Below, piece after piece: positions 13,834 to 59,752 of a stretch of DNA of 64,000 bases. Source of the DNA: Escherichia phage vB_EcoM_G5211. The stretch lies in sequence record MK327947.1; one strand, written 5' to 3'. Below the pieces are notes generated by a model that did not search any database, was not told where the DNA came from, and saw nothing but the letters and a program-made list of their open reading frames with translations. The first letter of the stretch is position 1. Every line of letters begins with the position of its first letter. The translations under genes and the position numbers were made by a program.

Positions 13834-14317
13834 ATTTTGCTAAATCATTGCAATATTTTAGTGCCTTAGTTTGAAATTCTGCGCTGTTAAGTTCTTCATA
13901 ACGGTCATAATCACCGTTTAATGCTGCTTTTCTTGCTTCTTGCTCTATCTGCATGTCAGACATGATAATACAGCGATCCCGCGCTTTCATCTTCTCAAGT
14001 TGTATAGACTCTTCTTTCTGCTTGCGCAATTCTTCTTGACGCTTCTTTTCTTCTTGTGCTTTCTCTTCCCGCGCTTCTTTGATTGCATCCTTGAACATCT
14101 GCGTTTGTGGTGCTAAACCAACTTTAACTCGATCTACGTCTCGACGTTCCATTTTAGAAATAAAGCATGATTCGATCTGATCATCACTTGCATATGCTGC
14201 TTTACATTCACGAAGCAAGAAAACCGGATCTGATTTAGCATTCATCATAGCTTCCATGTTGGCACAACCAGTAAGCATGAATGCAGCCGCAAGACCAATC
14301 AGTTTAATCATTTTCAT
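13832..14317 (-). CDS. predicted lipoprotein with coiled-coil region
   Basis: Signal peptide with lipobox LTGC; charged K/E-rich middle. Confidence 0.6.
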   Translation of the reverse strand: MKMIKLIGLAAAFMLTGCANMEAMMNAKSDPVFLLRECKAAYASDDQIESCFISKMERRDVDRVKVGLAPQTQMFKDAIKEAREEKAQEEKKRQEELRKQKEESIQLEKMKARDRCIIMSDMQIEQEARKAALNGDYDRYEELNSAEFQTKALKYCNDLAK

Positions 14318-15138
14318 TTAGTCACCTCACCGAAAATTGTAAATTGTCTACGATTCTCATCGCCGAAAGATTCTACTACGTCGTTTACCTTGACGCAAGT
14401 CCCGCGCGGTAAAATTACTTCACATTCGCAAGGGTTCCATGCAATGGACCCAACAACAAAACCTTTATGATCTTTTACATCAATCACCCATGATACATTA
14501 CAAGAATGTTGCATCTTTCCGGTCATGGATTCATATCGATTCTCACAATAAAGGCTAGTGCTGTTTGATAGCCAGCCTCCAAAGATGATCGGTGTCATGC
14601 TGGTCGATACAAAGTTTTTAAAGGTAAACTCCTTATCTTCAATGATACGCTCTATTGTCTGAATGTCAAGATGTTGACCGCGATAAAGAGTACCGTTTAA
14701 CTTTTCGGTTTTATCCATGACGCAATCCATCAAATCGACAATCTCTGATATCTCATCGGTCATGTCTTCTTCCCCTAAGAGAGCACCATTTACCCATTCG
14801 TATTGCTCAGACACATAATCACAGATTGCATTATATTCTGCTGGGGTTATGTTGTTATGTTTGTAATGTTTGAATACATTATCTCCAAAGTCTTCGGAGT
14901 GTACTTCATACATCACATTAATGATTTTCTTGACAAATCCATAATCTTGTGTCTCACGCTCAAGGAAGCGGATAACCTTCACATAATCATCAAAGTTAAT
15001 CTGATCGCTGATCATCTCAGTGATCATGTAACCATTAATACCCTCAATGTCATATGTTTCGATGTAATTATCCATACGTTCCATCATTGATTCGCGTGAT
15101 TCTTCTGAAAGACGAAAATCCTGTAATTTCTTGAACAT
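14314..15138 (-). CDS. ADP-ribosyltransferase, short Alt-like paralog (catalytic domain only)
   Basis: LYRG...FVSTS...CECEVILPRG (R, S-T-S, E-x-E motifs) aligning with the C-terminal part of the adjacent Alt. Confidence 0.75.
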   Translation of the reverse strand: MFKKLQDFRLSEESRESMMERMDNYIETYDIEGINGYMITEMISDQINFDDYVKVIRFLERETQDYGFVKKIINVMYEVHSEDFGDNVFKHYKHNNITPAEYNAICDYVSEQYEWVNGALLGEEDMTDEISEIVDLMDCVMDKTEKLNGTLYRGQHLDIQTIERIIEDKEFTFKNFVSTSMTPIIFGGWLSNSTSLYCENRYESMTGKMQHSCNVSWVIDVKDHKGFVVGSIAWNPCECEVILPRGTCVKVNDVVESFGDENRRQFTIFGEVTK

Positions 15139-15216: not shown

Positions 15217-17268
15217 TTACATTTTAAATTTATCTGGCATTGCGTCTACAGATACCAGATCAGCGATAAGCTGACGTAGAGTTGCCTTATCTGCTTTCTT
15301 ACGTTCGGTTTTAGCTTCGCTAATGAAGCTGGAGAAAGACAGGTCAGAAGCAGGTTTAATAACACCTTCACGGATGAATGCATCACCGTCCGCGATCATC
15401 TCGCCAGATTCTTGTAATGCTGCCAGTTCATTTTTGTTCATAATATGTGCCTCAATGTAATAAGTTTCTTGTGAATCCGTCGATGCCGTAGCACGAGTTA
15501 CCGTATCAAAGGATAACACAACACCGCGAGGAAGTAAAATCTCGCATTCTTTGTAAGCAAATGCTTTGTTACCTACTGGCAATACAGGGATGTTTTCCGC
15601 GCCAGCAATGGAGAAAGCAACATTAGCGCCACCTTCACCGCGAGAGCCAGCCATAGAATCAACACCAGCAACGGCACTAGCCACGTTTGCATTCCAGCCG
15701 CCAAAAATGTTAGGTGCAAGGGAAGTGCTCACATAGTTTTTAAAGTAAAACGCTTTTTGCTTACGTGCAGTTTCCCACATTTGCGACCGGAAGTCCATAC
15801 CACGATACAGAATAGTACCCGGATCAAGTTTAACGCCATAGTTGGAGAAGGCATTATCCAGTGCATCGCACATCTTGACCAATTCTTCTGGATCTGCGAT
15901 GCCTTCAAACTCTTCCAGCTTACGGTCGGTTAGGAAGTTGTTCATATTGATGTATGCTGCATCGGCATATTCGCTCAACACAAAACCTTCCGCGCCCGGC
16001 AGATCAAGATCAATATCTGCCATCATTTCACCCATGTTGCTAGCAATTGCTTCAAACATACCGGAAGCAACATTACGTAGGGCATCGGTTTTAATCTGGG
16101 TGATGTGACTACGCAGCATTTCAGCTTTTACATCTGCTGGCATAGACTGGTCTACTCGATCCATTGCCAGGGCGGTGATCTTGTTTTCGAATACTTCCTC
16201 GCTCATGATTTCTTTTAAGCGTTTGATTGATGCTGCGATAACTTCCGCAGACAATGGATCATATTGATCCTGAACTTTTACCAGTTCGCTTACTGCGTAT
16301 TTTGCATCGGCTTCGCTTTCAAAAATAGTACGCATGAAACCATAGCGAGTGATAATATCACTTGTCCAGTCATTCAGAGAACGGGCGGTTGAACGTTCTA
16401 AGGCTTGACGATCAATCAGAGTATTAAACTGTTTCTTAGGTTCGGCTTCGGTGATATCTTCTTCCGGTTTAAGATTAATTTTTTCTGGATGATTCACATA
16501 GTCGCTGTTATAGGTCGCTTGAGTTTTCAGCATTTCTTCTTTAGTCAAACGAGATTTAGCCGCTACGCGTTGTTCTGCTTCCGCGTTTCGTTCTTCTTCT
16601 GACACAAGACTAGCCGCATATGCCTCATCTTTAGTCAGAGATTCACCAGTAGCCTTAGATACCCAGCGATCACCTAAATCACTTTCTACTTTAGTGAACA
16701 AGGATTCATCAAGTTTAATCCCTTTAATCTTATCAATCGCCATCCCGCGACGCTTGACAACAACTAAAGCGATCTTTTTGCTGGTCATTACTTCCTGCTG
16801 GAATACTTCAAACTTCGGTGTACGACGCACCAAACGCTCTATAACGCGCTTAACCAGTTCGGTCTTACCTTTCATGCGGGATACGTTAAAACGGAACATA
16901 ACAGCGTCTAATTGCGCTTTACGGGCTGTTTCCATAACCACATCAAAAGCACTTGACATAACTGCAATCGGGTTATCGCCTAGACCATTTTTAAGCTGTA
17001 CAATACGACCGCTTTTGTTCATTTCGCACAGTACAACATGTGCGGTCTTGTCACCCATACGAATGATTTTAGGTGTTTTGTTGGTGAAGTTACAAAGACG
17101 GACAATCACATCTTTATCGCGTGTCTGTACTGCAAAAAGCTGTTTAGGATTCTGCTTAGGCTTTAAGCACTGTACCGGAGCAATACTGCCAAAGTTTTCT
17201 TCCTCTTCCGTCAACAGCCATTTCTCGAAAGATTCAATCATTAGATCGTCGATTTCTAAGTTAAACAT
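15217..17268 (-). CDS. alt: Alt ADP-ribosyltransferase
   Basis: 683 aa; C-terminal ART motifs YRG, STS, ECEILLPRG; position after gene 54. Confidence 0.8.
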   Translation of the reverse strand: MFNLEIDDLMIESFEKWLLTEEEENFGSIAPVQCLKPKQNPKQLFAVQTRDKDVIVRLCNFTNKTPKIIRMGDKTAHVVLCEMNKSGRIVQLKNGLGDNPIAVMSSAFDVVMETARKAQLDAVMFRFNVSRMKGKTELVKRVIERLVRRTPKFEVFQQEVMTSKKIALVVVKRRGMAIDKIKGIKLDESLFTKVESDLGDRWVSKATGESLTKDEAYAASLVSEEERNAEAEQRVAAKSRLTKEEMLKTQATYNSDYVNHPEKINLKPEEDITEAEPKKQFNTLIDRQALERSTARSLNDWTSDIITRYGFMRTIFESEADAKYAVSELVKVQDQYDPLSAEVIAASIKRLKEIMSEEVFENKITALAMDRVDQSMPADVKAEMLRSHITQIKTDALRNVASGMFEAIASNMGEMMADIDLDLPGAEGFVLSEYADAAYINMNNFLTDRKLEEFEGIADPEELVKMCDALDNAFSNYGVKLDPGTILYRGMDFRSQMWETARKQKAFYFKNYVSTSLAPNIFGGWNANVASAVAGVDSMAGSRGEGGANVAFSIAGAENIPVLPVGNKAFAYKECEILLPRGVVLSFDTVTRATASTDSQETYYIEAHIMNKNELAALQESGEMIADGDAFIREGVIKPASDLSFSSFISEAKTERKKADKATLRQLIADLVSVDAMPDKFKM

Positions 17269-17550: not shown

Positions 17551-17615
17551 ATACTCCTTAGTAGTTCGTTTCGGTATGGGTGTATTATGATATACACCCT
17601 CTGTTATGTCAACAA
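17551..17615 (-). promoter_or_regulatory. early promoter/leader cassette
   Basis: TTGACA, ~17-nt spacer, CATAAT, conserved leader, GGAG SD. Confidence 0.55.
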
Positions 17616-17618
17616 CTT

Positions 17619-17798
17619 TTAGAACATTTTTGAAATTAATTCTGCTTTGATTTCGCAGAGAACATCTAAAGATTTCTCGTCACCCGCTTTTGCTGCTTCT
17701 GCTTGCATTTTTGAAATGGCTTCAATGTCAGTGCAATTATAAGCCGCTTGAACTTTAGCGATTGCGATGATTGCCGATTCGATGGTTAAGTGTTTCAT
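17619..17798 (-). CDS. hypothetical small early protein (59 aa)
   Basis: Hand-translated MKHLTIESAII...; preceded by cassette. Confidence 0.45.
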   Translation of the reverse strand: MKHLTIESAIIAIAKVQAAYNCTDIEAISKMQAEAAKAGDEKSLDVLCEIKAELISKMF

Positions 17799-17868
17799 GT
17801 TTGATTCTCCTTTCGTTTCGGTATGTGTGCATTATAGGGGATCTCCGACCCCCCTGTCAACAACTTTT
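17799..17868 (-). promoter_or_regulatory. early promoter/leader cassette with GC palindrome in spacer
   Basis: TTGACA 17855-17860, TATAAT 17831-17836, palindrome GGGGGGTCGGAGATCCCC between them, GGAGAATC SD. Confidence 0.55.
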
Positions 17869-18422
17869 TAGTTATTTTTTAATTGCTCATCTTGCAATAG
17901 GGCAATCACATGCTGGCGATGTTCTTCCGATTGAGGAACACCGAAAAAGTTTGTTTTGTAGAAATACTCTAATCGGTCTTCTCGTGTGCTCTCTTCCATC
18001 ATGATCGCGGGTAGTCCGAGATTTCGGAAACGTCGCTTTTCTGCTGGCGTAAAATCACTGTAATACAACATAGAATCATCATTACCAGCAATGCTAAACT
18101 CATCATTCATGAAGGAGAATATTGCGTTTAAACGCTGTTTACCGTCCACGATTTCGATCTCATAGCGAGAGCCATCATCAATCTTAGCCATTGCGATAGC
18201 ACCAACCGGAAAATCATTAATCAGGTTTTCGATAAACATACGTTTGTTTTCGGTGTCCCATACCAAAGGACGCTGATAATCTGGGTTCATGTTGATATAG
18301 CCATCTTCTAACCATGCATCATAAACAGAGATGACAAAGTTTTTAGTATTGGTATAGTAACGGCGTTTAGGCGTTAAACGGTTCATGTTATAGTCTCCTG
18401 AATGGATCATCACGTAAATCAA
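17868..18422 (-). CDS. DUF262 (ParB-like / GmrS N-terminal-like) domain protein
   Basis: PDYQRPLVWD ... FPVGAIAMA ... IVDGKQRLNAI matches the DUF262 signature (DGQQR-type motif). Confidence 0.6.
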   Translation of the reverse strand: MIYVMIHSGDYNMNRLTPKRRYYTNTKNFVISVYDAWLEDGYINMNPDYQRPLVWDTENKRMFIENLINDFPVGAIAMAKIDDGSRYEIEIVDGKQRLNAIFSFMNDEFSIAGNDDSMLYYSDFTPAEKRRFRNLGLPAIMMEESTREDRLEYFYKTNFFGVPQSEEHRQHVIALLQDEQLKNN

Positions 18423-18717
18423 TATCTTTTAAGAACTCATCCCATGAATGGCGGATATTGTTCTTAATTCTCCAGATAAGCGCAGGGATTGAACGCTCTC
18501 CCATCTGGAAGTAAGGATCATATGATCCGTATGCCCAATATGCTACTACAATTCCACAGTCAGCGCAATAGTATTCTATTTCACTTGCTGGCGACCAAAG
18601 TCCATCAATATGATCAGTGATCTTGCTTTCGATGTTATGACTATGACAATCAGGGCAACGGATGCAATGACCTTGTTTATCGTAATTTGACGTTAGAGAA
18701 TACTTAAACAATCTCAT
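18388..18717 (-). CDS. zinc-ribbon protein
   Basis: CIRCPDCH ... CADCG cysteine pairs; ATG overlaps upstream stop (TAATG). Confidence 0.5.
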   Translation of the reverse strand: MRLFKYSLTSNYDKQGHCIRCPDCHSHNIESKITDHIDGLWSPASEIEYYCADCGIVVAYWAYGSYDPYFQMGERSIPALIWRIKNNIRHSWDEFLKDIDLRDDPFRRL

Positions 18718-19433
18718 TATAGATCCTTATTGGCTTCAAATACTGCCTTTGCGAATCCTCGCGGGGTAAGTGACCTGATAGTCTTTGTTCTGGTTCCTTT
18801 CCCGCCTAGCTTAGAATGCTGTTTACTGTACCCTTTATTAATCTGCAACGGTTTCTTTTCTGGCATTATAAAGCCTTGTCCGGTCCATAAGCAAGTCTTT
18901 TTCGGGTACATATCACGGGCGGCAATATACTCAGGAAACGTAGGATGCTTATCATCTTCCGGCAAATAACCGCCATATTCCCACGGATGGAACATGTAAT
19001 CAGGCTTACGCCACATACTAGAGATAACGCTTACAGGATTCTCTATCATGTAGGGAACTCCTAGCCATTCACCCAAATAAGCGGTTATTTTAGCTGTCCG
19101 TACATCATGAACTTGAATCAATGGTCCTTGTTCTCGTTTCTTTCGTTCAAAGTGTGCAGCGCCACTAACAGCTAAATTGGTGCACGGTGGGAATGCAAAG
19201 ATAATATCCGGTTTCCCCCATTCAAGGTCCATTGCTCTTTCCAGCCAGTTCAAATCAATCCAGGTGTTTACATAAGTAATGTTTGGATGTTCAAATCTGG
19301 TATTATACTTTTTGTATGTACCGTGGTCGGCGTCATCCGCATTAAAGCAGACTACCTTATGACCTGCTTTAGCCCATTCTAGCCCCATTATCCCCGATCC
19401 GTCAAAGTTGCAGAATATTAATTTTTGTTTCAT
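18717..19433 (-). CDS. compact DNA C5-cytosine methyltransferase-like protein
   Basis: Motif I-like FCNFDGSGIMG, catalytic-type FAFPPC, ENP (ENV-like), C-terminal R-LTPR motif IX-like; only 238 aa. Confidence 0.5.
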   Translation of the reverse strand: MKQKLIFCNFDGSGIMGLEWAKAGHKVVCFNADDADHGTYKKYNTRFEHPNITYVNTWIDLNWLERAMDLEWGKPDIIFAFPPCTNLAVSGAAHFERKKREQGPLIQVHDVRTAKITAYLGEWLGVPYMIENPVSVISSMWRKPDYMFHPWEYGGYLPEDDKHPTFPEYIAARDMYPKKTCLWTGQGFIMPEKKPLQINKGYSKQHSKLGGKGTRTKTIRSLTPRGFAKAVFEANKDL

Positions 19434-19671
19434 ATACCACCCTTTAACCCAGCACAGATTTTAGTCGGTTCTTTACCGTGCCACATTAAGTAAAGTCCGT
19501 TAATGCGACCTTGTTTTGTGTGTGATTCTTTTCTAATCTTCTTATAGTGTCGTGCTTCCTCAACTTATTGTTTAGAATACCAATCATAAAGGAAGAGGCA
19601 CAAAGGCCAACCATTAGCGGCCTTAATGCAGTTATTAAGAAATTCCTTATTGCGTTTAATTAATTTTCTTT

Positions 19672-19923
19672 TCACGCTACCCCCATTGGTTTGATAGTAA
19701 CAGAATCTAAAAGACCTTTGTTAGCCAGTTCGCGGCAAGTTTTCAGATCCGCAACTTCCCAGCCAGCCGCAATCAGGTTATCAATCAGGCTGTTAGCAAC
19801 TTCTTCGCTCATGAAAGAGCACTGTTTGCCGATGGTGTAGCGCACACGCTGTAATTTCAGTTTACGGAAGCCTTTAACGTTCAGGTCTTTAGCGATTTTC
19901 TTTGCGGTTTCGATGTTAGCCAT
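19672..19923 (-). CDS. hypothetical early protein
   Basis: ORF preceded by cassette. Confidence 0.5.
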   Translation of the reverse strand: MANIETAKKIAKDLNVKGFRKLKLQRVRYTIGKQCSFMSEEVANSLIDNLIAAGWEVADLKTCRELANKGLLDSVTIKPMGVA

Positions 19924-19998
19924 TGTTTGATTCTCCTAAGTGGTATCTCGTCTTGATGGTTGTATTGTAGGGGAGTTATCCTCCCCTGTCAACACTTT
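19924..19998 (-). promoter_or_regulatory. early promoter/leader cassette with GC palindrome
   Basis: TTGACA 19987-19992, palindrome GGGGAGGATAACTCCCC, TACAAT, GGAGAATC. Confidence 0.55.
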
Positions 19999-20006
19999 TT
20001 ATAAAA

Positions 20007-20174
20007 TTATTTGTTAATTTCTGGTGCGTTGCTAGGATAGTAACCTTCTTTAACTCCGAGGTATTTCGCAACCATCCCTACAATCTTCTGTGCTACTACA
20101 ATGTCAAATTTCAGATAATCTTCGCCGTGGGTTTCAATGATATATGCTTCACATGCTGCTTTAGTCTCGAACAT
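20007..20174 (-). CDS. 55-aa conserved small protein, copy 1 of duplicated gene
   Basis: Hand-translated MFETKAACEAYIIETHGEDYLKFDIVVAQK...; near-identical to copy at 23273..23440. Confidence 0.55.
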   Translation of the reverse strand: MFETKAACEAYIIETHGEDYLKFDIVVAQKIVGMVAKYLGVKEGYYPSNAPEINK

Positions 20175-20242
20175 TTTGATTCTCCTATTTCGTTTCGGTA
20201 TGTGTGTAGTATAGGGGATCTCCCGATCCCCGTCAACAACTT
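20175..20242 (-). promoter_or_regulatory. early promoter/leader cassette with GC palindrome
   Basis: TTGACG, palindrome GGGGATCGGGAGATCCCC, TATACT, GGAGAATC. Confidence 0.5.
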
Positions 20243-20250
20243 TTTTAAAA

Positions 20251-20532
20251 TTATTCGTGATTAGTTTCGATATTGTGCATTTTGCACCAGTTCAGCCAAT
20301 CGCCCAGATCTTTATAGTTGATGCTTTTATCTGCTGCCATCGTTTTTGTCTTGATACCCATATGTGCGTTATGAGTAAGCATTTTTACAGTGAACTCAAT
20401 TTTATCGCCTTTAGCTTTAACATCAACCAGTTTGGTCCACTGGCTACCAGCGCCGCGAATGTTCATACCAACGATGTTTCCGATGTATGCTTCTTTGTTT
20501 TTCAGGATTTCGGTTGCTTTGATGAATTTCAT
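20251..20532 (-). CDS. hypothetical early protein
   Basis: ORF preceded by cassette. Confidence 0.5.
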   Translation of the reverse strand: MKFIKATEILKNKEAYIGNIVGMNIRGAGSQWTKLVDVKAKGDKIEFTVKMLTHNAHMGIKTKTMAADKSINYKDLGDWLNWCKMHNIETNHE

Positions 20533-20600
20533 TTTTGATTCTCCAGTTCGTTTCGGTATGGGTGTATTATGCTATGTTCTTACTTTGGTGTCAACAACTT
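20533..20600 (-). promoter_or_regulatory. early promoter/leader cassette
   Basis: TTGACA, CATAAT, conserved leader. Confidence 0.55.
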
Positions 20601-20602
20601 TT

Positions 20603-20872
20603 TTAGATATTTTCAGAAATAAATTTTAAAACTTGACGTAAATGTTTCTCATCTTTGATAGTCGCCGGAAGTTCTTCTTTTACTTCCTGTGCAAGATAGA
20701 TATTTCCGTTCCAAGTGAAAGATCCGTCTTTGTTTACGCGATAGCTGAACATCCACTCGCAATCATTTTCGATTTCATATACACACAGAAGGGTGTAATC
20801 GTTAAAGCTATTGATTTCAAGGTCGAAGCCGTGACGTTTTGCAAAGTTGGTAGTGGTTTTAGTCAGTGCCAT
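20603..20872 (-). CDS. hypothetical early protein
   Basis: ORF preceded by cassette. Confidence 0.5.
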   Translation of the reverse strand: MALTKTTTNFAKRHGFDLEINSFNDYTLLCVYEIENDCEWMFSYRVNKDGSFTWNGNIYLAQEVKEELPATIKDEKHLRQVLKFISENI

Positions 20873-20948
20873 TGTTTGATTCTCCTAAGTGGTATCTCGT
20901 TTCGATGGGTGTATTATGCTATAGGCTAGATCAGGTGTCAACAACTTT
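20873..20948 (-). promoter_or_regulatory. early promoter/leader cassette
   Basis: TTGACA 20936-20941, CATAAT, GGAGAATC. Confidence 0.55.
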
Positions 20949-20971
20949 TTTAATTTTTTGGAAATAAAAAA

Positions 20972-20991
20972 AGCCGACACTAAGGTCGGCT
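20972..20991 (-). terminator. hairpin + U-run
   Basis: AGCCGACCTTAGTGTCGGCT + TTTTTTT on minus strand. Confidence 0.6.
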
Positions 20992-20998
20992 AATAAAA

Positions 20999-21307
20999 TC
21001 ATTTAGACAAATAATCATTCTGTGCAATCCGGTCGGCGTATGCTGGTGTTATGTCAATCGCCAGCACTTTAACGCGTGCTTTCTTGCGACCTGTGTTTTC
21101 TCGTAACCAGTGCTCATGACCGTGAACATTTTTATACTGCGATGCTTCTTCGAAGGTACGGATCGGACCTGGATAATCTGCGTAAAGGATCTCTAGGTCT
21201 TCGGTGATGTAAAAATATACATCATAATTACTGTTCTCTAGTTTAAGCAGAGACTTTCGGAACATTGGGAGATTTTCGCGGGTAAATTCAAAGATATTAT
21301 CTTTCAT
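20999..21307 (-). CDS. small His-motif family protein, member 1
   Basis: Shares Y-x-Y...HxHxHW...(V)LA(I/V)D pattern with 21727..22005, 22020..22328, 22738..23016. Confidence 0.5.
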   Translation of the reverse strand: MKDNIFEFTRENLPMFRKSLLKLENSNYDVYFYITEDLEILYADYPGPIRTFEEASQYKNVHGHEHWLRENTGRKKARVKVLAIDITPAYADRIAQNDYLSK

Positions 21308-21335
21308 AGTATTATCCTCAATAGTTGGATGAAAA

Positions 21336-21352
21336 GGGGGCTTAACGCCCCC
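21336..21352 (-). terminator. hairpin + U-run
   Basis: GGGGGCGTTAAGCCCCC + TTTT; same hairpin as at 17314-17329. Confidence 0.5.
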
Positions 21353-21357
21353 ATATA

Positions 21358-21645
21358 TTAAAACAGACCTTCCTGTACACCGTAGTAGAGTTCATCGCTG
21401 ATAATTTCATTAATGCGACGGTGTGCATATTCCTGATTTGCGAAGTTGTCAGCAAGTTCTACTTTAGTTTCGCCGTCATGAGTCCATTTAGTGATAACTT
21501 TACCATCTGCAAATTTGAAGTTGAACTCTTTAGCTACCGCATCGCGTACCAGACGTGCAAACTTATTGTTGCGGATTGCATTGTCGGTTTCGTGTGCAGC
21601 GTGAGCGAATTTGTTAACTTTCAGAGTGATAGTAATGTATGCCAT
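21358..21645 (-). CDS. hypothetical early protein
   Basis: ORF preceded by cassette. Confidence 0.5.
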   Translation of the reverse strand: MAYITITLKVNKFAHAAHETDNAIRNNKFARLVRDAVAKEFNFKFADGKVITKWTHDGETKVELADNFANQEYAHRRINEIISDELYYGVQEGLF

Positions 21646-21728
21646 AATTTGATTCTCCTAGTTAGAAAGTGTATCTCGTTTCGATGGGTGTATTATGCTA
21701 TACACCCAACCTCATGTCAACACTTTTT
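21646..21728 (-). promoter_or_regulatory. early promoter/leader cassette
   Basis: TTGACA 21715-21720, CATAAT, GGAGAATC. Confidence 0.55.
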
Positions 21729-22005
21729 ATAAAATAATTTTTTGATATTTTTCTATGATGTTCGTGTAATTCACATCAACCGCTAGCACCGTTGCTTCGA
21801 ATCCACCGTTTAGCCAATGGCTATGATCGTGATCGTGAAAGAAACCTAGACCAGTACGAAGACCTTCTTTATATTCGGCGCGTACATTTAGATCATCATC
21901 GATAAACAGATAAAACCATGAATTTTTACTAGGATTGATGATACAACCTTTCAGATTCGGGAGAATATCACGACTAAGAATAAACTTATCACCTACTTTG
22001 AACAT
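21727..22005 (-). CDS. small His-motif family protein, member 2
   Basis: FHDHDHSHWL ... VLAVDV. Confidence 0.5.
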   Translation of the reverse strand: MFKVGDKFILSRDILPNLKGCIINPSKNSWFYLFIDDDLNVRAEYKEGLRTGLGFFHDHDHSHWLNGGFEATVLAVDVNYTNIIEKYQKIIL

Positions 22006-22019
22006 AATATTTTCCTCAC

Positions 22020-22328
22020 TTATAAAGTTTGACCGTTGTTTTTCGCATAATGCTTAATGCGTGCTTGATCTGCTTCCGCTGGTGATAGATTCCATGCAAC
22101 CACTACAACTTCTGACGCATCGTCATCCGTTTCTGATACCCAATGGTTGTGATTCATACAGTTATTTGCTATCGAGTGAGCAAATGATTTCATCACTGGA
22201 GACGTATAATCATAGTAACGGATTTTCAGATTTTCATCAACATACAAGTAGATCGTATAAGGTTTATATTCAGTAACCAGTAACAGACAGTTACGCAATT
22301 CTGGGAAAATCTTTTTAGTTAATTTCAT
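22020..22328 (-). CDS. small His-motif family protein, member 3 (track ORF extends to 22409)
   Basis: MNHNHWV ... VVVAWN; GAGGA RBS before internal ATG at 22328. Confidence 0.45.
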   Translation of the reverse strand: MKLTKKIFPELRNCLLLVTEYKPYTIYLYVDENLKIRYYDYTSPVMKSFAHSIANNCMNHNHWVSETDDDASEVVVVAWNLSPAEADQARIKHYAKNNGQTL

Positions 22329-22329
22329 T

Positions 22330-22551
22330 TTATAATCCTCGGTCGCGGCTATAGTACACGGTACGCCATACAATTTCATGTTTCGTGTCGCTCCAGCACA
22401 CGATCTCATTTACTCTTAAATCTTTGTTATCAACAAAAGATGAACATTGTGACGCTTCTTTCATCATTTTATCTGCTGTTTTCTCATCAAATACAGCACA
22501 GATTTCTTTATACACTCGATAATCTTTAAACTTGCTCATAATTAACACCAA
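22330..22551 (-). CDS. MSKFKDY-family small protein, copy 1
   Basis: Tandem paralog of 22542..22757. Confidence 0.5.
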   Translation of the reverse strand: MVLIMSKFKDYRVYKEICAVFDEKTADKMMKEASQCSSFVDNKDLRVNEIVCWSDTKHEIVWRTVYYSRDRGL

Positions 22552-22757
22552 TCAAGAGTTTTTGAGAAAACCTCTATCCATTGTTGAGTATATGCGGTTT
22601 CTTTCCATGATACAATACCAGTAGAATAATGGTTTTTGTTTCCAGAAAATGACGGGCATTTTGATGCATCTTCCATCATCTTTTCGGCGAACTCTGGTTC
22701 GTATACTCGCAAGATCTGTTGATATGCTTTATAATCTTTAAATTTGCTCATAATCAT
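22542..22757 (-). CDS. MSKFKDY-family small protein, copy 2
   Basis: Tandem paralog of 22330..22551. Confidence 0.5.
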   Translation of the reverse strand: MIMSKFKDYKAYQQILRVYEPEFAEKMMEDASKCPSFSGNKNHYSTGIVSWKETAYTQQWIEVFSKTLDWC

Positions 22758-23016
22758 TCACTACCTTATCAGCTTCTTTTGTTGTTTTTACATCAACTGC
22801 GATAACCCGTAAAGGTTCGTCATGGTTCCACCAATGATCGTGAATATCGGCTTGTGATTTATCACCAAAGGAATCACGAATATCATTTTTACTTTTATAG
22901 CTAATGTGACCGTCATAGTCAACATAAAGGTAATTATCGAAAATCGGCGTTTTTAAGATCATGCCGAAAAATCTTTCTTTGTGTGTCTTATCCAGCGTTG
23001 CAGTAATTCGCATCAT
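22738..23016 (-). CDS. small His-motif family protein, member 4
   Basis: IHDHWWNH ... VIAVDV. Confidence 0.5.
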   Translation of the reverse strand: MMRITATLDKTHKERFFGMILKTPIFDNYLYVDYDGHISYKSKNDIRDSFGDKSQADIHDHWWNHDEPLRVIAVDVKTTKEADKVVNDYEQI

Positions 23017-23028
23017 AATATATTCCTC

Positions 23029-23208
23029 TTAGAAAGGGATGGTCATTTCTTGAGCTTGTACATTCTCGTTAGGATTAAACTTCATCCAACCAATATTGTC
23101 TACCAGCATATGCACATTTTTATCATATCCTACGTGAGTAGTCAACACTAAATGTGATTTACCTTCAACGATGATTTCCATGTACTTCTGAACTTCGATA
23201 GCTTTCAT
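23029..23208 (-). CDS. hypothetical small early protein (59 aa)
   Basis: Hand-translated MKAIEVQKYMEIIVEG...; preceded by cassette. Confidence 0.45.
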   Translation of the reverse strand: MKAIEVQKYMEIIVEGKSHLVLTTHVGYDKNVHMLVDNIGWMKFNPNENVQAQEMTIPF

Positions 23209-23272
23209 TTTGATTCTCCGTTTGTTGTCTTGATGGGAGTATCTTACTACTCCCTTTAATCATTGTCAACTA
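23209..23272 (-). promoter_or_regulatory. early promoter/leader cassette
   Basis: TTGACA 23264-23269; GGGAGTAGTAAGATACTCCC palindrome spanning TAAGAT -10; GGAGAATC. Confidence 0.5.
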
Positions 23273-23440
23273 TTATTTGTTAATTTCTGGTGCGTTGCTT
23301 GGATAGTAACCTTCTTTAACACCCAGATATTTTGCAACCATTCCGGTGATCTTCTGTGCTACTACGATATCGAATTTCAGGTAGTCTTCACCGTGTTTTG
23401 CTACAATGTATGCTTCGCATTCTGCTTTAGTCTGGAACAT
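23273..23440 (-). CDS. 55-aa conserved small protein, copy 2 of duplicated gene
   Basis: Hand-translated MFQTKAECEAYIVAKHGEDYLKFDIVVAQK...; paralog of 20007..20174. Confidence 0.55.
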   Translation of the reverse strand: MFQTKAECEAYIVAKHGEDYLKFDIVVAQKITGMVAKYLGVKEGYYPSNAPEINK

Positions 23441-23520
23441 TTTTGATTCTCCTATATCTCGTTGGTATGTGTGTATTATAGGGGATCTCCCGATCCCCTG
23501 TCAACAACTTTTTTGAATTA
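23441..23520 (-). promoter_or_regulatory. early promoter/leader cassette with GC palindrome
   Basis: TTGACA 23509-23514, GGGGATCGGGAGATCCCC, TATAAT, GGAGAATC. Confidence 0.55.
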
Positions 23521-23994
23521 TTTTTCTTGATGCTCGCGCTCGTACTTTTCGAAATAAAATTCTACTGGCTGGTCATGAATTGACAGCAAGCCAAAGCGTT
23601 TAGCCGCTCGCAATCCCATATTGCGCTGAATGTACTTCTGGAAGTTCTCGCGTATACACTTACGCCAGTATTCTAAGCCCATACAGCTTTTATAAAGATT
23701 GCATTGTACACACGCCGGATTCATGTTATCAAGTATATCATGTTCCGGTTTATGCATTCCTACAACCTTATACTTCCACGACCCATCATCATTACGGGCA
23801 ATTCGTCCATTTTCATCATAGACTACCTTTGAGCGTCGCAATACTGGTTTGATATGGTCTGCGTGCCAGCGATCCCCTAGTTCCTCGCCACAATAGGCAC
23901 AACGCCCACCGTATTTCATTTTCAGGATCTGGCGTTGCTCTTTCTTTGACAATTTTTTAGGTTTAGGGGCTTTCGCCCCTTCATTATCACACAT
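23518..23994 (-). CDS. HNH endonuclease
   Basis: CAYCGEEL...HADHIKPV...NMNPACVQCN HNH/zinc-finger motif; overlaps 3' end of ligase gene. Confidence 0.65.
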   Translation of the reverse strand: MCDNEGAKAPKPKKLSKKEQRQILKMKYGGRCAYCGEELGDRWHADHIKPVLRRSKVVYDENGRIARNDDGSWKYKVVGMHKPEHDILDNMNPACVQCNLYKSCMGLEYWRKCIRENFQKYIQRNMGLRAAKRFGLLSIHDQPVEFYFEKYEREHQEK

Positions 23995-25483
23995 CGAATA
24001 CCTCTTTTACTGTATTTGCCGTGGTCTTGTCGTAGCGAATACGTTTGATGATTGGGAGAAATAAAGAGAACTCCGGTTCATCTTCTTTACGTGATTTGCT
24101 GCGGATATACCCGTTGCATGTCATCTCAATGACTTTTCCAATCAGGTTATGACGGTCAGCCCATAACATTTCTCGGTCGAGTTCATTTCGACGATCGAAC
24201 GGAATTACACGTTCGATACCATCATCACCTTTTTCGGTTGTGGTGTCGGTTAATCCCGATCCGGTGTTAGTCATCATTCGTCCGCACGCACTACGGACAG
24301 TAAAACCGCCTACCTTATTGGGGTCTTTACTATGCGGATATACATCAACAATTTCCGCGTCGAAGTCAATAACTTCTTTAAATTTAACCTGATCTTTACT
24401 GCGACGATCTTCAAATACACCATGTAAATTTTTAAGGATAATACCTTCTAAGCCCATGTTTACATAGCGATGATATACTTCGCGAGCTTCATCGATATTG
24501 TTAACTACAGTGTTTTCGATTATCTGAACACGAGGATCGTTAAGTTCTTCAACAATCTGTTTTAGTTCTTCGAATCGATCTTTATATTGCTTCGTTGCTT
24601 TCTCGTTTCCGTAATACACATCACGGTCGATAACATCCCAGACAGTGTAAACAATACATTGGGCTTCTTCTTTTGGAATAGTTCCTTTCAGTGATTTGTT
24701 GAGGATACCATTTCCGGTCTGACGATCTGCAACAACGGATTCTTTCACTGCTTCCGCTACTGGCGTTAATGGCATTTCATCTTCTTCAAATATCCATGAC
24801 AGAGTACCATCATAAACGCTCTCAACGAAGTTCTGCGCTGGTGTTTGCGAAAGGGTAGGCATATATACCAATTCGCCATCTAGAACAATTCCACGGCCTC
24901 GTAGACGCTCTAAAACCACAAACAAATCATCAAGCCCTTGATAGGTATTACCTGAACGGGTATAGATTGCTAATGTTTCCCCGTCAATATCAGCCATCCC
25001 ACGAGCGCCATCGCTTTTAAGTTGTGCATACGCCGGATATTTGATATTGGCAATGGTCTTATCAGAACATGACGATGCAAGGTGGCACGGCTGCTGAGGA
25101 ATCAGTTTCTTCCATACCTTGTTTGCGGTGGTAGCGGAACAACCGCATTCTAGGTCTCGATTCAGGACCATCATTGCAACTTTAGCATCGTCTTCCGACA
25201 AGCAAGTCAGAGTATCGGTAACTAGCTGTAATGCTGCATTACCAGTTATTTGACGCGTGGCAAGTTTATTTTTAAAGACCTGTAATGCGCCAGATAAAGA
25301 CAATACAGATGAATAACGCGACGGTTTATCGTATTTCTTTACGCCAAACGTAACCTGTTTGCAATATGCCAGATAAAAGCATTCTTTCAGCGTTTCATTG
25401 CTTGCAGATTCTTTCAGGATCTTTTCTTTCAGCGATGTTTTGTCTGTTGCTGCAAGCTGATTAATGATATTAAGAATTGACAT
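23987..25483 (-). CDS. 30: ATP-dependent DNA ligase gp30
   Basis: Colinear with T4 DNA ligase (FPAYAQLKSDGAR..., DGELVY, NKSLKGTI, EGIILKN); probable ATG at 25483 with GAGGTGA RBS (track start 25489 is GTG). Confidence 0.85.
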   Translation of the reverse strand: MSILNIINQLAATDKTSLKEKILKESASNETLKECFYLAYCKQVTFGVKKYDKPSRYSSVLSLSGALQVFKNKLATRQITGNAALQLVTDTLTCLSEDDAKVAMMVLNRDLECGCSATTANKVWKKLIPQQPCHLASSCSDKTIANIKYPAYAQLKSDGARGMADIDGETLAIYTRSGNTYQGLDDLFVVLERLRGRGIVLDGELVYMPTLSQTPAQNFVESVYDGTLSWIFEEDEMPLTPVAEAVKESVVADRQTGNGILNKSLKGTIPKEEAQCIVYTVWDVIDRDVYYGNEKATKQYKDRFEELKQIVEELNDPRVQIIENTVVNNIDEAREVYHRYVNMGLEGIILKNLHGVFEDRRSKDQVKFKEVIDFDAEIVDVYPHSKDPNKVGGFTVRSACGRMMTNTGSGLTDTTTEKGDDGIERVIPFDRRNELDREMLWADRHNLIGKVIEMTCNGYIRSKSRKEDEPEFSLFLPIIKRIRYDKTTANTVKEVFDV

Positions 25484-25949
25484 TTTCACCTCGTTTTGTT
25501 AAACGTTCACGAATATCATTGAGGATACTACAAAATTCCGATTCAGTCAATATAGTCTTTAACGGATCAGTTCCACCTATGCTATGACGTAATTTCTTAT
25601 TTCCGGTAGCGAGTAATGCTTTACAAAATTCTGGGTTATTCCGTGCCATCGTAACAAATGCCAGATGTACCAGTCTGTAATAATGCTCACTCATTCGATG
25701 AATAGGGCGACCCTGAAAATATAACATGTGATTCTCAATCTTTTCAGTTCTTCCGGTTCTTTTTGCTTTGCCACCGTGCATCAAAAAGATTTCTCTTTGT
25801 CTCTGAGGGTTCTTAAATCTTAGCCCCTGTAAAAATCCTTCTGTGCTGTTAATATCGCAACCAAATAGACGGAATGGTCTTTTATTGAAATTGCTCAATT
25901 CACCCGATGGATAAGGTCCACCCGCATAGATATCAATTTCAGAAGTCAT
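25470..25949 (-). CDS. NADAR (YbiA-like, DUF1768) domain protein
   Basis: Aligns by eye to E. coli YbiA: ELSNF...STEGFLQGLRF (cf. FSNF...TSEHYFQAQKF) and CKALLATGNKKLRHS (cf. LRALLLATAPAKLVEHT). Confidence 0.6.
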   Translation of the reverse strand: MTSEIDIYAGGPYPSGELSNFNKRPFRLFGCDINSTEGFLQGLRFKNPQRQREIFLMHGGKAKRTGRTEKIENHMLYFQGRPIHRMSEHYYRLVHLAFVTMARNNPEFCKALLATGNKKLRHSIGGTDPLKTILTESEFCSILNDIRERLTKRGENVNS

Positions 25950-31518: not shown

Positions 31519-31592
31519 TTGATTCTCCTTAAAGTGTATTTCGTTTCGATGGGGGTATATTACTACCCCCGTTTCATGCTGTCAACTACTTT
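31519..31592 (-). promoter_or_regulatory. early promoter/leader cassette
   Basis: TTGACA 31580-31585; GGGGGTAGTAATATACCCCC palindrome. Confidence 0.5.
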
Positions 31593-31804
31593 TTAATGAC
31601 AAGTTCGAATTTTGCTACCTTGCGTCCTCGTTTATTGAAAGCAACCCACGGACGGTTTTCAATGTAGAACAATTCTTCGCCAATAATGAATACTGGCTGA
31701 TTGTAAAGGCGACCCATCAGGTCACGCTGGCGAATGGTAGTAGATTCGTATACTTCGCCTACTACAAAGTGCTTGCTGATAGAGTCGGTGCAAGTAAATT
31801 TCAT
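31586..31804 (-). CDS. hypothetical early protein
   Basis: ORF preceded by cassette. Confidence 0.5.
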   Translation of the reverse strand: MKFTCTDSISKHFVVGEVYESTTIRQRDLMGRLYNQPVFIIGEELFYIENRPWVAFNKRGRKVAKFELVIKK

Positions 31805-31875
31805 TTTGATTCTCCTTTGTTTCGTTTCGATGGGGGTATATTACTACCCCCCCGTTATTCAGTGTCAACTACTTT
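31805..31875 (-). promoter_or_regulatory. early promoter/leader cassette
   Basis: TTGACA 31863-31868; palindrome over -10. Confidence 0.5.
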
Positions 31876-57589: not shown

Positions 57590-57612
57590 AATATAATCCT
57601 CACGTCAACAAC

Positions 57613-57900
57613 TTATTTTCGGTTGTGGTCACGATATGTTTTAAAATATCCCTCGTACCACGGTAAAACATCTGGATTTTTACCACTATACAGACCTTTA
57701 ACCATCATGTCAATAAGGCCATCCGGTGTTTGATAGTTTCCAGCTTTTATAAGCTCTCTGATTAAAATCTCTCTGTATATGTCTTTCGGATCTTCGTAAT
57801 CAACTTGTATTGTGGTTGTGGTCTCATTCAATTTGGTTTCTGGAGTATCTCGCATCACATCCCACCAATCTTTTGTGATCTTCATGTTATTGAATTGCAT
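57613..57900 (-). CDS. hypothetical protein
   Basis: ORF only. Confidence 0.45.
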   Translation of the reverse strand: MQFNNMKITKDWWDVMRDTPETKLNETTTTIQVDYEDPKDIYREILIRELIKAGNYQTPDGLIDMMVKGLYSGKNPDVLPWYEGYFKTYRDHNRK

Positions 57901-57911
57901 AATTTAACCTC

Positions 57912-58670
57912 TTACTTGCAAACGTATTGATCTACATCAATTGCGCCACCGAATGTAGGATGACGTTTTTCAAATCTAATAGTTCCGTCGTTTGGTTCGA
58001 AAACGGAGTATTCATATAGATCTTTCTTGCCAACATTCTTATAAAACCCGCCTTTAGTCATAACGGTTTCTTGTACGTTTGCTTTGTGTACGTTGTATTC
58101 GTCAATGTATACAAAATCAACCATCTTCCCATTTTTAATGGTTACTTTAAGATCTCCTGGTTGATTTCCATATTTTGCATACAGTGGCGCTTCTTTAATT
58201 TTTGTGGAAATTCCATCTTTCATACTCCACTCATAACGAACGGTGCATTGATAGGTAAAAGTTTCGACCTTCGGTTCTTCTACCACTTTTGCTTCCTGTT
58301 TCGGTTGTTCTTCTTCAACCTTCGCAGAAGTCTCTGAATCGCTTTCTGACGCGGTTTCTTCTTTAGGTAATACGTTCATCAAGTTTTGGATTTGAGCGTT
58401 GTATACAGCCTCCAGTGGCTGAATCTGCCCGATATTGATCATTGTATCACGAACAGTTTTATTCCAGTTTCGTTGCTCTTGTTTCAGAGACGGATCAATC
58501 TTAACAGCCTTAACATACACCTCATGAAGTTTAGAGTCCAGTGCGGAGATAGACTCATTAGCACAAATAAACTTCTCTGATTTGGTAGTAGCTTTAGCGC
58601 AATCAAAGGACGCAGCGTTAGCACCGAAAGCAGTAGCAGAAAGAACGATAGCAGCGATAATGTTTTTCAT
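57912..58670 (-). CDS. secreted DUF1311 (LprI-like) domain protein
   Basis: Signal peptide MKNIIAAIVLSATAFGANA; FDCAKATTKSEKFICANESISALDSKLHEVY...QRNWNK matches the DUF1311 pattern. Confidence 0.55.
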   Translation of the reverse strand: MKNIIAAIVLSATAFGANAASFDCAKATTKSEKFICANESISALDSKLHEVYVKAVKIDPSLKQEQRNWNKTVRDTMINIGQIQPLEAVYNAQIQNLMNVLPKEETASESDSETSAKVEEEQPKQEAKVVEEPKVETFTYQCTVRYEWSMKDGISTKIKEAPLYAKYGNQPGDLKVTIKNGKMVDFVYIDEYNVHKANVQETVMTKGGFYKNVGKKDLYEYSVFEPNDGTIRFEKRHPTFGGAIDVDQYVCK

Positions 58671-58740
58671 AATATATTCCTCAGTGTTTTGTCTTGATGG
58701 GAGTATCTTACTACTCCCTTAATCCGGTGTCAACTACTTT
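58671..58740 (-). promoter_or_regulatory. early promoter/leader cassette
   Basis: TTGACA 58728-58733; GGGAGTAGTAAGATACTCCC palindrome. Confidence 0.5.
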
Positions 58741-58896
58741 TTAAATTTCTTCTACAGTAAAGTCTTCAATGTTGTTGTGCTCGGCGAACGTTGCCAGACC
58801 AGCATTCCATGCATCATCCTCAGAGAAGAATACACCGTAACGTTCATATCCTTTAGCGCCTTCAAATTTAACCATTAATTTGTGAGTATGTTTCAT
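58741..58896 (-). CDS. hypothetical small protein (51 aa; track ORF extends to 58959)
   Basis: ATG 58896 directly downstream of cassette. Confidence 0.45.
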   Translation of the reverse strand: MKHTHKLMVKFEGAKGYERYGVFFSEDDAWNAGLATFAEHNNIEDFTVEEI

Positions 58897-58962
58897 TTTG
58901 ATTCTCCTTCGTTGTCTTGATGAGTTTAGTATAGGGGATCGCCGATCCCCTGTCAACAACTA
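58897..58962 (-). promoter_or_regulatory. early promoter/leader cassette with GC palindrome
   Basis: TTGACA 58951-58956, GGGGATCGGCGATCCCC, TATACT. Confidence 0.5.
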
Positions 58963-58966
58963 TTTT

Positions 58967-59179
58967 TTAATTTTTACCCGCTCGTGCATTAATACGCATT
59001 TTCTGCATAGCCATGATCTGGCTTACTGCTTCTTCTTTACGTTCTTGCGTGATAACGTGACCAGATTCCGCAAACTCTCCCGCAACTTCTTCTACGATCT
59101 CGCGAATTTGAGAACGTCCAAAGATGCGGTTTCCTTCGTAGCCCATAAACTCGGTTACTACTTGCTCGATAGATTTCAT
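58967..59179 (-). CDS. hypothetical small protein (70 aa)
   Basis: ATG 59179 downstream of cassette. Confidence 0.45.
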   Translation of the reverse strand: MKSIEQVVTEFMGYEGNRIFGRSQIREIVEEVAGEFAESGHVITQERKEEAVSQIMAMQKMRINARAGKN

Positions 59180-59243
59180 GTGATTCTCCTTTCGTTTGGT
59201 ATGGGAGTATGTTACTACTCCCATTTCTTTACGTCAACAACTA
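59180..59243 (-). promoter_or_regulatory. early promoter/leader cassette
   Basis: TTGACG 59232-59237; GGGAGTAGTAACATACTCCC palindrome. Confidence 0.5.
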
Positions 59244-59402
59244 TTTTAAATTATTTTCGACCTTCATCCATTCCGCGTATTCTTGCGCGGCTACTTTCGG
59301 ATTTAGTCCATCTTCGTACATTGCTTCAAGTAATTCTTTGTCGGTGGGCTTATACCCTAGATAAGCCTCCACCTGATTTTTCCAAATTTTATACCAGTTC
59401 AT
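59241..59402 (-). CDS. hypothetical small protein (53 aa)
   Basis: Internal ATG 59402 with GGTGA RBS; track ORF extends to 59471. Confidence 0.4.
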   Translation of the reverse strand: MNWYKIWKNQVEAYLGYKPTDKELLEAMYEDGLNPKVAAQEYAEWMKVENNLK

Positions 59403-59406
59403 ATTA

Positions 59407-59679
59407 TCACCAATCAAGAGCGCGTGTCTCTGCGTCTTCCCATGCTTGACCCATAACAGCCTTGAAAACATATTCTAGAGTATCATCTTTAGAGAATCCG
59501 AAGACCTTAGACGGGATATCTTCAATTGCTACTCCCGCAACTTCTGCATTGCGCGCTTGGCAGTAATGCAACTCTAAGTTATCGAGATAGCGACCGCCTA
59601 ATTTCTCCATATCATCCCAGCATTTCCAGTAACCTACTTTATCTGCAATTGCTAACACTTTGCTGTTTTTGTTGCTCAT
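59407..59679 (-). CDS. hypothetical protein (90 aa)
   Basis: ATG 59679 downstream of cassette. Confidence 0.45.
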   Translation of the reverse strand: MSNKNSKVLAIADKVGYWKCWDDMEKLGGRYLDNLELHYCQARNAEVAGVAIEDIPSKVFGFSKDDTLEYVFKAVMGQAWEDAETRALDW

Positions 59680-59752
59680 CTTTGATTCTCCTTTTGTTTG
59701 GTATGTGTGTATTATGCAATGATGGATTATGGAAGTCAACAACTTTTTAAAA
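59680..59752 (-). promoter_or_regulatory. early promoter/leader cassette
   Basis: TTGACT 59744-59749, CATAAT, GGAGAATC. Confidence 0.5.

Follow-up and report, generated by a model that had tools for sequence, protein, structure and literature searches.

Among therapeutic and model coliphages krischviruses are common, and no function is known for about half of their genes. The question addressed here is whether six small open reading frames (ORFs), lying between positions 20,999 and 23,016 of a 64,000-nucleotide stretch of the genome of Escherichia phage vB_EcoM_G5211 (MK327947.1; the whole stretch is called the window below), are related to one another and, if so, what kind of proteins they may encode. 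An earlier, sequence-only reading of this DNA had described four of them as proteins with a shared histidine motif and two as a pair beginning MSKFKDY, and all six are present where it had placed them, on the minus strand. They proved to represent two families, designated A (A1 to A4) and B (B1 and B2), and they correspond to ORF197 and ORF199-203 of phage RB49, inside the alt-gene 30 hyperplastic region (window genes were equated with RB49 ORF191-205 gene by gene, using the RB49 and phi1 annotations).

The region itself, its regulatory cassettes and its plasticity were already known; the genes stood in sequence databases as hypothetical proteins, and PHROGs had grouped them in part. The new findings are that ORF197, 199, 200, 203, 206 and 208 are one family with an invariant H-x-H-W motif, that ORF201 and ORF202 are a second family, and that a repeat that mediates loss brackets the block in which they lie. 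In most isolates, seven to eight of the small alt-gene 30 genes reduce in this way to two conserved families, a short set that is open to testing.

Two families of small paralogs

The four proteins with the His motif align over their full length, with invariant residues at Y31, H64, H66, W67, V81, A83 and Y99, and H64, H66, W67, A83 and Y99 were still invariant when A1 to A4 were aligned with 18 homologues representing all orthologous groups (22 sequences). In Smith-Waterman comparisons with 1000 shuffles, pairs within the family gave z scores of 7.5-20, with none of the 1000 shuffles reaching the observed score, except for A3-A4 (z = 2.8), a pair that is joined via A1 and A2. The independently built profile phrog_9345 matched all four (A1 at 1e-48, A2 at 2.7e-5, A3 at 2e-51 and A4 at 8.6e-4), covering A1 and A3 over their full length and A2 and A4 partially, and the predicted folds superpose, as described below. 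A chance likeness of short sequences rich in aromatic residues and histidine, to which the weak direct similarity of A3 and A4 might be ascribed, is contradicted by these results and is so improbable that it can be set aside. The paralogs are about 25-34% identical to one another and are old, and the relatedness first noticed by eye is a true paralogy.

An H-x-H-W core is kept in A1 to A4, in ORF208 and in all metagenomic members, and its positions coincide in the alignment, so that the His residues on which the sequence-only reading had staked its grouping are positionally conserved. The wider His clusters that it listed need correction. Additional histidines, such as the first H of HGHEHW and the HDH of HDHSHW, vary among orthologues (FGHEHW in P0036, NEKDHSHW in P0028), and the residues of A4 that align with the core are IHDHWW, not DHWWNH. 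Similarly, within the '(V/I)(L/V)A(I/V)D' strand that it described, the Ala is invariant and the remaining positions vary, A3 having VVAWN. The 'VGDK...LKG.II' N-terminal pattern is confined to the A2 and ORF208 types, and the stretch immediately preceding the motif (alignment columns about 50-68) differs strongly from paralog to paralog and carries indels.

The two MSKFKDY proteins were confirmed as tandem paralogs: B1 and B2 share 44% identity (E = 7e-19, z = 25 with 1000 shuffles), and phrog_8471 matched both of them, B1 at 1.6e-33 and B2 at 3.6e-36. Their starts are likely to be the ATG codons of MSKFKDY at 22539 and 22751, instead of 22551 and 22757 as in the ORFs listed earlier, because the similarity between B1 and B2 begins there. 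An alternative, longer ORF (22020-22409) extends A3 upstream so that it overlaps B1, and some gene callers choose this form, giving products of 119-123 amino acids; since some callers use the longer A3 ORF, the occurrence of B1 and A3 in one cluster at 90% identity is an annotation artefact. For family B, a lead to the SAM-like helical proteins YozE/UPF0346 (PDB 2FJ6) was rejected at the sequence level. Both have a similar length and a similar predicted succession of helices, as well as a local 'EFA..(M/A)(M/Y)ED..SF' match, but profile-profile similarity was lacking (hhalign probability 0.2%, E = 0.34), and searches of PDB and Pfam gave no YozE match.

Existing groupings capture these relationships in part. 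The window proteins are full-length members of four PHROGs (9345, 17255 and 15972 for family A, 8471 for family B), at E = 1e-48 to 1e-64, and these PHROGs carry no functional annotation. Family A is split among three of them: phrog_9345 unites the A1 and A3 types, A2 matches phrog_17255, and A4 matches phrog_15972. The tie of A2, A4, ORF206 and ORF208 to the A superfamily comes from weak PHROG cross-matches or from the family A hidden Markov model (HMM) built here. GenBank holds identical copies of all six proteins, with A1, A2, A3, A4 and B1 under G5211_00198 and 00200-00204, each as 'hypothetical protein'.

The family A HMM found exactly four copies in the 64-kb window, with no fifth copy elsewhere in it, and six, the number typical of most relatives, in RB49, FL37, phi1 and JK32. 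The two extra lineages of these relatives are ORF206 and ORF208, both missing from the G5211 window; ORF208 carries YKGHTHWLGSEDVVEVLAVDV (GHTHW...VLAVDV). JSE and KMB43 have a divergent A3-like gene instead of A2 and a single B gene, A1 copies are frameshifted in JSE and kvi, and none of the Krischvirus regions examined has fewer than two family A genes. Among cultured phages, tblastn placed A3 and ORF208 in 56 records each, all of them Escherichia or Shigella Krischvirus. Word-indexed searches gave 54 clusters for family A, all from phage-type, phage-sized contigs, and 13 clusters for family B. A HMMER search of 1.84 billion protein representatives with family A returned 14 matches, of which 13 were genuine, all of Krischvirus type, and none was annotated; the other, P0065, is a eukaryote-like repeat protein of 649 amino acids, and its match was put down to low complexity and discarded as false. 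One metagenomic contig (L004, SRR8048117_15661) carries five A domains in 2.1 kb, two of which, both with HNHW, are joined in a natural tandem fusion (P0064, 203 amino acids, 823-1434), and on another (L005) a divergent B homologue lies directly upstream of a divergent A homologue. Both families are ORFans restricted to Krischvirus-type phages.

Regulatory cassettes and loss of the block

Over a 4-kb region, the locus is 96-97% identical to genomes of Krischvirus (the RB49/phi1/JSE group of 'pseudo-T-even' coliphages), and the label 'T-even' that had been given to the phage was therefore mistaken. Every gene from 18.7 to 25.5 kb, including all six family ORFs, is on the minus strand, and the block is bounded by alt on one side and by the genes for an HNH protein and DNA ligase gp30 on the other (Table 1). 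The hyperplastic region and its promoter-early stem-loops (PeSLs) were defined by Arbiol et al. 2010 (PMC2839356). A PeSL promoter was recognised by -35 and -10 boxes close to the sigma70 consensus, preceded by an AT-rich tract and placed ahead of an ORFan of a hyperplastic region.

Table 1. Genes, regulatory elements and repeats of the locus, in window positions.
Feature	Position	Strand	Remarks
Second ADP-ribosyltransferase gene	14314-15138		flanks hyperplastic region
alt	15217-17268		ADP-ribosyltransferase; flanks hyperplastic region
RB49 ORF187 orthologue	17868-18386		172 amino acids, early ORF
238-amino-acid ORF	18717-19433	-	
Downstream repeat copy	20006..20177		contains ORF191-type gene
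ORF191-type gene	20007-20174	-	55 amino acids
Promoter site	20913..20941	-	near-consensus sigma70; no internal stem
Terminator-like hairpin, then T7 run	20972..20991	-	directly downstream of A1; z = -5.0; next promoter follows
A1 (RB49 ORF197)	20999..21307	-	102 amino acids; family A; HGHEHW
Terminator-like GC hairpin GGGGGCGTTAAGCCCCC, then TTTT	21336..21352	-	directly upstream of A1
ORF198 orthologue	21358..21645	-	95 amino acids; in neither family; between A2 and A1
PeSL, TTGACA-17-CATAAT with stem-loop	21692..21720	-	ends six-gene unit, starts ORF198
A2 (ORF199)	21727..22005	-	92 amino acids; family A; HDHSHW; KOW-like N-terminal sequence
A3 (ORF200)	22020..22328	-	102 amino acids; family A; NHNHW; ATG at 22328 preceded by GAGGA Shine-Dalgarno
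B1 (ORF201)	22330..22539	-	69 amino acids; family B (MSKFKDY)
B2 (ORF202)	22542..22751	-	69 amino acids; family B; start overlaps A4 end
A4 (ORF203)	22738..23016	-	92 amino acids; family A; IHDHWW
ORF204 orthologue	23029..23208	-	59 amino acids; heads ORF204-A4-B2-B1-A3-A2 unit
PeSL, TTGACA-17-TAAGAT	23241..23269	-	stem-loop overlaps -10 box; -12.2 kcal/mol, z = -3.1
Upstream repeat copy	23272..23443		contains ORF205-type gene
ORF205-type gene	23273-23440	-	55 amino acids
ORF206-211 deletion junction	23441-23530		within PeSL adjoining HNH gene
PeSL, TTGACA-18-TATAAT, GGGGATC/GATCCCC stem	23475..23504	-	12/12 consensus matches; adjoins HNH gene
HNH protein and DNA ligase gp30 genes	23518-25489	-	

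Three of the four promoters of the locus gave folding energies of -12 to -16 kcal/mol (with z = -2.5 to -3.7 against shuffled sequence), the exception being the site that ends at 20941. The features listed for PeSLs by Arbiol et al. 2010 are found here, namely near-consensus sigma70 boxes, a stem-loop and recombination between cassettes, and the genes do lie, as the sequence-only reading had it, in a variable early region, behind promoters of the sigma70 type. An extended -35 motif, AAGTTGTTGACR, occurs in 14 copies in the window, where about 1 was expected, all on the minus strand. The copies cluster in at least three variable regions (17607-23510, 27641, 31580-31874 and 57603-59745). A scan with Rfam from 18.5 to 25.6 kb gave no RNA family.

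The ORF204 orthologue, A4, B2, B1, A3 and A2 are tightly packed, with overlaps or gaps of 1-14 nucleotides and GAGGA-type ribosome-binding sites, and the PeSL that precedes this unit is likely to drive all of it. The ORF204 orthologue was also found beside family A on a divergent metagenomic contig. In reporter constructs, other PeSLs of the hyperplastic region were strong promoters and terminators (Arbiol et al. 2010, PMC2839356), and it is from these data and the promoter consensus that early expression of the present genes by the host polymerase may be supposed. A1 is set apart from the unit between two terminator-like hairpins, and the promoter scan gave no strong sigma70-type match between the upstream hairpin and the A1 start codon.

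Comparison of related genomes revealed how the block is lost. A 172-nucleotide direct repeat (85% identity), each unit of which holds a gene for a 55-amino-acid protein (ORF191 and ORF205 types), brackets the whole block, as PeSLs also do; these two genes are also a third paralog pair of the region. In phages Cognac and FL04, ORF193-204 are all gone, and A1 to A4 and the B genes with them, and a single 55-amino-acid gene remains, in a region that fuses ORF205-side to ORF191-side sequence. At the Cognac junction, ORF205-type sequence makes up the upstream flank, the PeSL and the leader, and the coding body that follows is ORF191-type; in FL04 the change from one type to the other occurs at the AT-rich edge of the PeSL, on its upstream side. 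The crossover points differ, and the two losses are independent recombinations between the repeat units. The same holds for G5211 and phiS, which are without ORF206-210/211: their crossovers lie inside PeSLs at different points, and the deletions therefore represent two independent events. The G5211 window has lost ORF206 and ORF208 via recombination between PeSL cassettes.

On these sequence comparisons, the block is gained or lost as a unit through homologous recombination, and since it has been lost naturally in this way, it is dispensable for propagation on the isolation hosts of those phages. The deletion variants (Cognac and FL04 for ORF193-204, G5211 and phiS for ORF206-211) are ready-made natural mutants for comparisons of host range. 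A further study of the PeSL-flanked ORFan cassettes of RB49/phi1 hyperplastic regions was reportedly made by Comeau et al. in 2014. The cassettes of RB49/phi1 treated by Arbiol et al. 2010 belong to the same region (ORF191-212), carry the same sigma70 promoter and stem-loop elements, and are gained or lost by PeSL or repeat recombination, as is seen in the crossovers here. The sections of that article (PMC2839356) consulted here treat the regulatory cassettes and the unique ORFans 192, 195, 196, 210 and 211; the word 'paralog' was searched for in the article and is absent, and the sections consulted give no account of ORF197/199/200/203/206/208 or ORF201/202 as families, nor of H-x-H-W.

Dispensability raises the question of whether the genes are maintained by selection. 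Ratios of nonsynonymous to synonymous change (pN/pS) were calculated from pooled Nei-Gojobori counts against seven related genomes, a rough pooling, given that the pairs depend on one another; the values were 0.37 for A1, 0.10 for A2, 0.05 for A3, 0.12 for A4, 0.08 for B1 and 0.13 for B2, compared with 0.04 for DNA ligase. The low ratios indicate that A2, A3, A4, B1 and B2 are real, constrained protein-coding genes under purifying selection. A1 differs in its relaxed constraint and is a pseudogene in two phages. Its decay, the repeated loss of a dispensable block, and the formation of mini-circles that has been shown in the hyperplastic region (Arbiol et al. 2010, PMC2839356) would all suit functionless passengers, kept by efficient shuffling or copying of PeSL-flanked cassettes, for example as PeSL mini-circles. 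Such an origin is decidedly improbable for the families, given that the ratios of the other five genes (0.05-0.13) are comparable to those of neighbouring genes, that the motif residues are invariant despite the low identity of the paralogs, and that A3 and ORF208 are each present in 56 Krischvirus records, with at least two A genes in every genome examined. The ORF198 orthologue (phrog_7474), which belongs to neither family, had the lowest ratio in the block (0.01; pooled synonymous and nonsynonymous differences Sd = 52 and Nd = 2), below that of the adjacent DNA ligase.

Predicted folds and possible functions

An AlphaFold2 model of A1, built from the 22-sequence alignment, was of the alpha/beta type, with a mean predicted local distance difference test (pLDDT) score of 79.6 and a predicted template modelling score (pTM) of 0.75. 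Besides five strands, the model has a helix at residues 52-58 and a long C-terminal helix, with H-x-H-W in a short 3-10 turn (64-67), and it superposes on predicted models of the paralogs in BFVD with template modelling (TM) scores of up to 0.76. Family A is thus modelled as a domain of roughly 90-105 amino acids with an H-x-H-W loop. Family B, from an alignment headed by B2, is predicted to be an all-helical domain of roughly 69 amino acids (pLDDT 95.5, pTM 0.84). The A1 model also matched a small JSE protein in BFVD (UniProt C4MZ33; probability 0.99, TM 0.48) that is without H-x-H-W and was assigned, by length and accession order, to EpJSE_00215 (L003 10662-10928, 88 amino acids); this predicted match suggests further structural relatives of the family A fold in the same region.

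Similarity to characterized proteins was sought in several ways. Scans of the six proteins and their neighbours with Pfam, NCBIfam and PADLOC gave no match above threshold for either family, and sub-threshold matches to PROCT, TTL, HNF_C and an F1 epsilon-like family were rejected. The best E values from a sequence profile search of PDB were 0.24 (family A) and 0.095 (family B), and neither match was accepted. Fold searches with the family A model returned no significant match to a known fold, metalloprotein folds (JAMM, HIT and cupin) included, and the PADLOC and sequence searches and these fold searches revealed no similarity to known defence or anti-defence proteins. Particular candidates fared no better. 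A JAMM/MPN metalloprotease, of which an E...HxH...S..D motif together with a profile match above threshold would be expected, was not supported, the PROCT match (E = 0.0034) scoring 17.7 bits against a cut-off of 23.6. HIT proteins are defined by an H-phi-H-phi-H-phi-phi motif on the HIT fold; in family A the first His is unconserved, with polar residues (G/D/N, E/S/T/D) in the intervening positions, and no HIT structures were among the fold matches. The NEAT domain of IsdC (E = 0.24) was matched through a local 'NHSHW', and no Ig-like fold is predicted. A KOW/Spt5-like domain is named for P0048, an A2 orthologue, by one source alone, and the Pfam scan gave no KOW match. The idea of DNA mimicry was ruled out, as the proteins have isoelectric points of 5.6-7.7 and are not strongly acidic.

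The sequence-only reading had seen in the His cluster a metal-binding mini-domain, and family A could indeed be self-contained in this sense, possibly a small metallo-enzyme, with zinc, nickel or iron chelated by the cluster. The conservation of H-x-H-W across the family and the additional nearby His in several members would suit this, as would the tandem-fused member, from which it may be supposed that a dimer could bring two H-x-H motifs together; the fusion hints at a dimeric state, in which a four-His site across the interface would be possible. The alignment of 22 sequences tells another story: its invariant residues include just two His, with no Asp, Glu or Cys among them, and the extra His are those that vary among orthologues. 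ORF206, moreover, reads RTSNHWYGG, with Ser in place of the first His of the motif (TSNHW), no metalloprotein fold was matched, and H-x-H-W falls in the least confident segment of the A1 model (residues 61-70, mean pLDDT 63), which weakens the case for a metal site. A metal-binding mini-domain is, on balance, unlikely.

We consider it reasonably probable that the genes are two Krischvirus-type ORFan families in a recombination-prone PeSL block, encoding small early accessory binders, those of family A sharing an H-x-H-W site. The unit would be transcribed by unmodified host RNA polymerase right after infection, and its products may modulate components of the host or of host defence. On a common scaffold, the H-x-H-W loop would serve all the paralogs as their functional site and would bind a metal or some other ligand, perhaps across the interface of a dimer, and the hypervariable segment before the motif might confer a specificity particular to each paralog. 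Small multi-copy phage inhibitors such as the anti-CRISPR and anti-Thoeris proteins AcrIIA7 and Tad2 offer a parallel in their small size, early expression (here supposed from the promoters), patchy presence, clustering in accessory regions and homologues limited to a narrow phage group. A role in host takeover or anti-defence, as the sequence-only reading had proposed, may likewise be suggested by genomic context.

Several observations weigh against this account. The binder and specificity model is drawn by analogy, and early expression of the family genes is inferred from the promoter consensus and from the reporter data of other PeSLs. The lack of a match to Pfam, NCBIfam, PADLOC or PDB sequences holds for both families, and no paper mentioning these ORFs came up when the literature was searched by RB49 locus tag and PHROG identifier. 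The metal option is burdened by the scarcity of invariant ligands, and the common site by the Ser of ORF206. Furthermore, B does not always accompany A: the metagenomic contig with five A domains has no B gene, and what is left in Cognac and FL04 is two A genes without any B.

More specific functions can be imagined for family A. Its members could be sponges that sequester small signalling molecules like Tad1, Tad2 and Acb2, with the invariant Trp and Tyr stacking on bases and His contacting phosphates, which seems very improbable. In a bolder version of the binder reading, family A would be a new small fold whose interfacial H-x-H-W site, for a metal or a nucleotide, neutralises host factors; the six paralogs, partly with B, would form an arms-race array, each directed at a different E. 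coli defence system or variant, and recombination at PeSLs and repeats would tune the repertoire from one phage isolate to another. This is quite unlikely. Should the accessory binders preferred here prove to inhibit host defence or to be takeover factors, the known set of such proteins would gain a new fold and motif, and the locus would be a worked example of how PeSL-mediated shuffling alters the accessory arsenal of a phage; if no phenotype were found, they would be an ordinary ORFan family. Overall the finding is sound but modest, with a small chance of a new inhibitor family.

Neighbouring genes

The genes around the block fit a host-takeover or DNA-modification setting, by association alone. 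Two ADP-ribosyltransferase genes, alt and a second one, flank the hyperplastic region, and the gene for the HNH protein is also among these neighbours. In relatives, the 238-amino-acid ORF bears the annotation of a Dcm-like or C-5 cytosine DNA methyltransferase; Pfam gave no match to it. The orthologue of RB49 ORF187 contains a GmrSD_N/DUF262 domain (E = 5e-20, above the Pfam cut-off) and has no nuclease domain at its C-terminus; the protein may act as a decoy or as a regulator with a link to type IV restriction.

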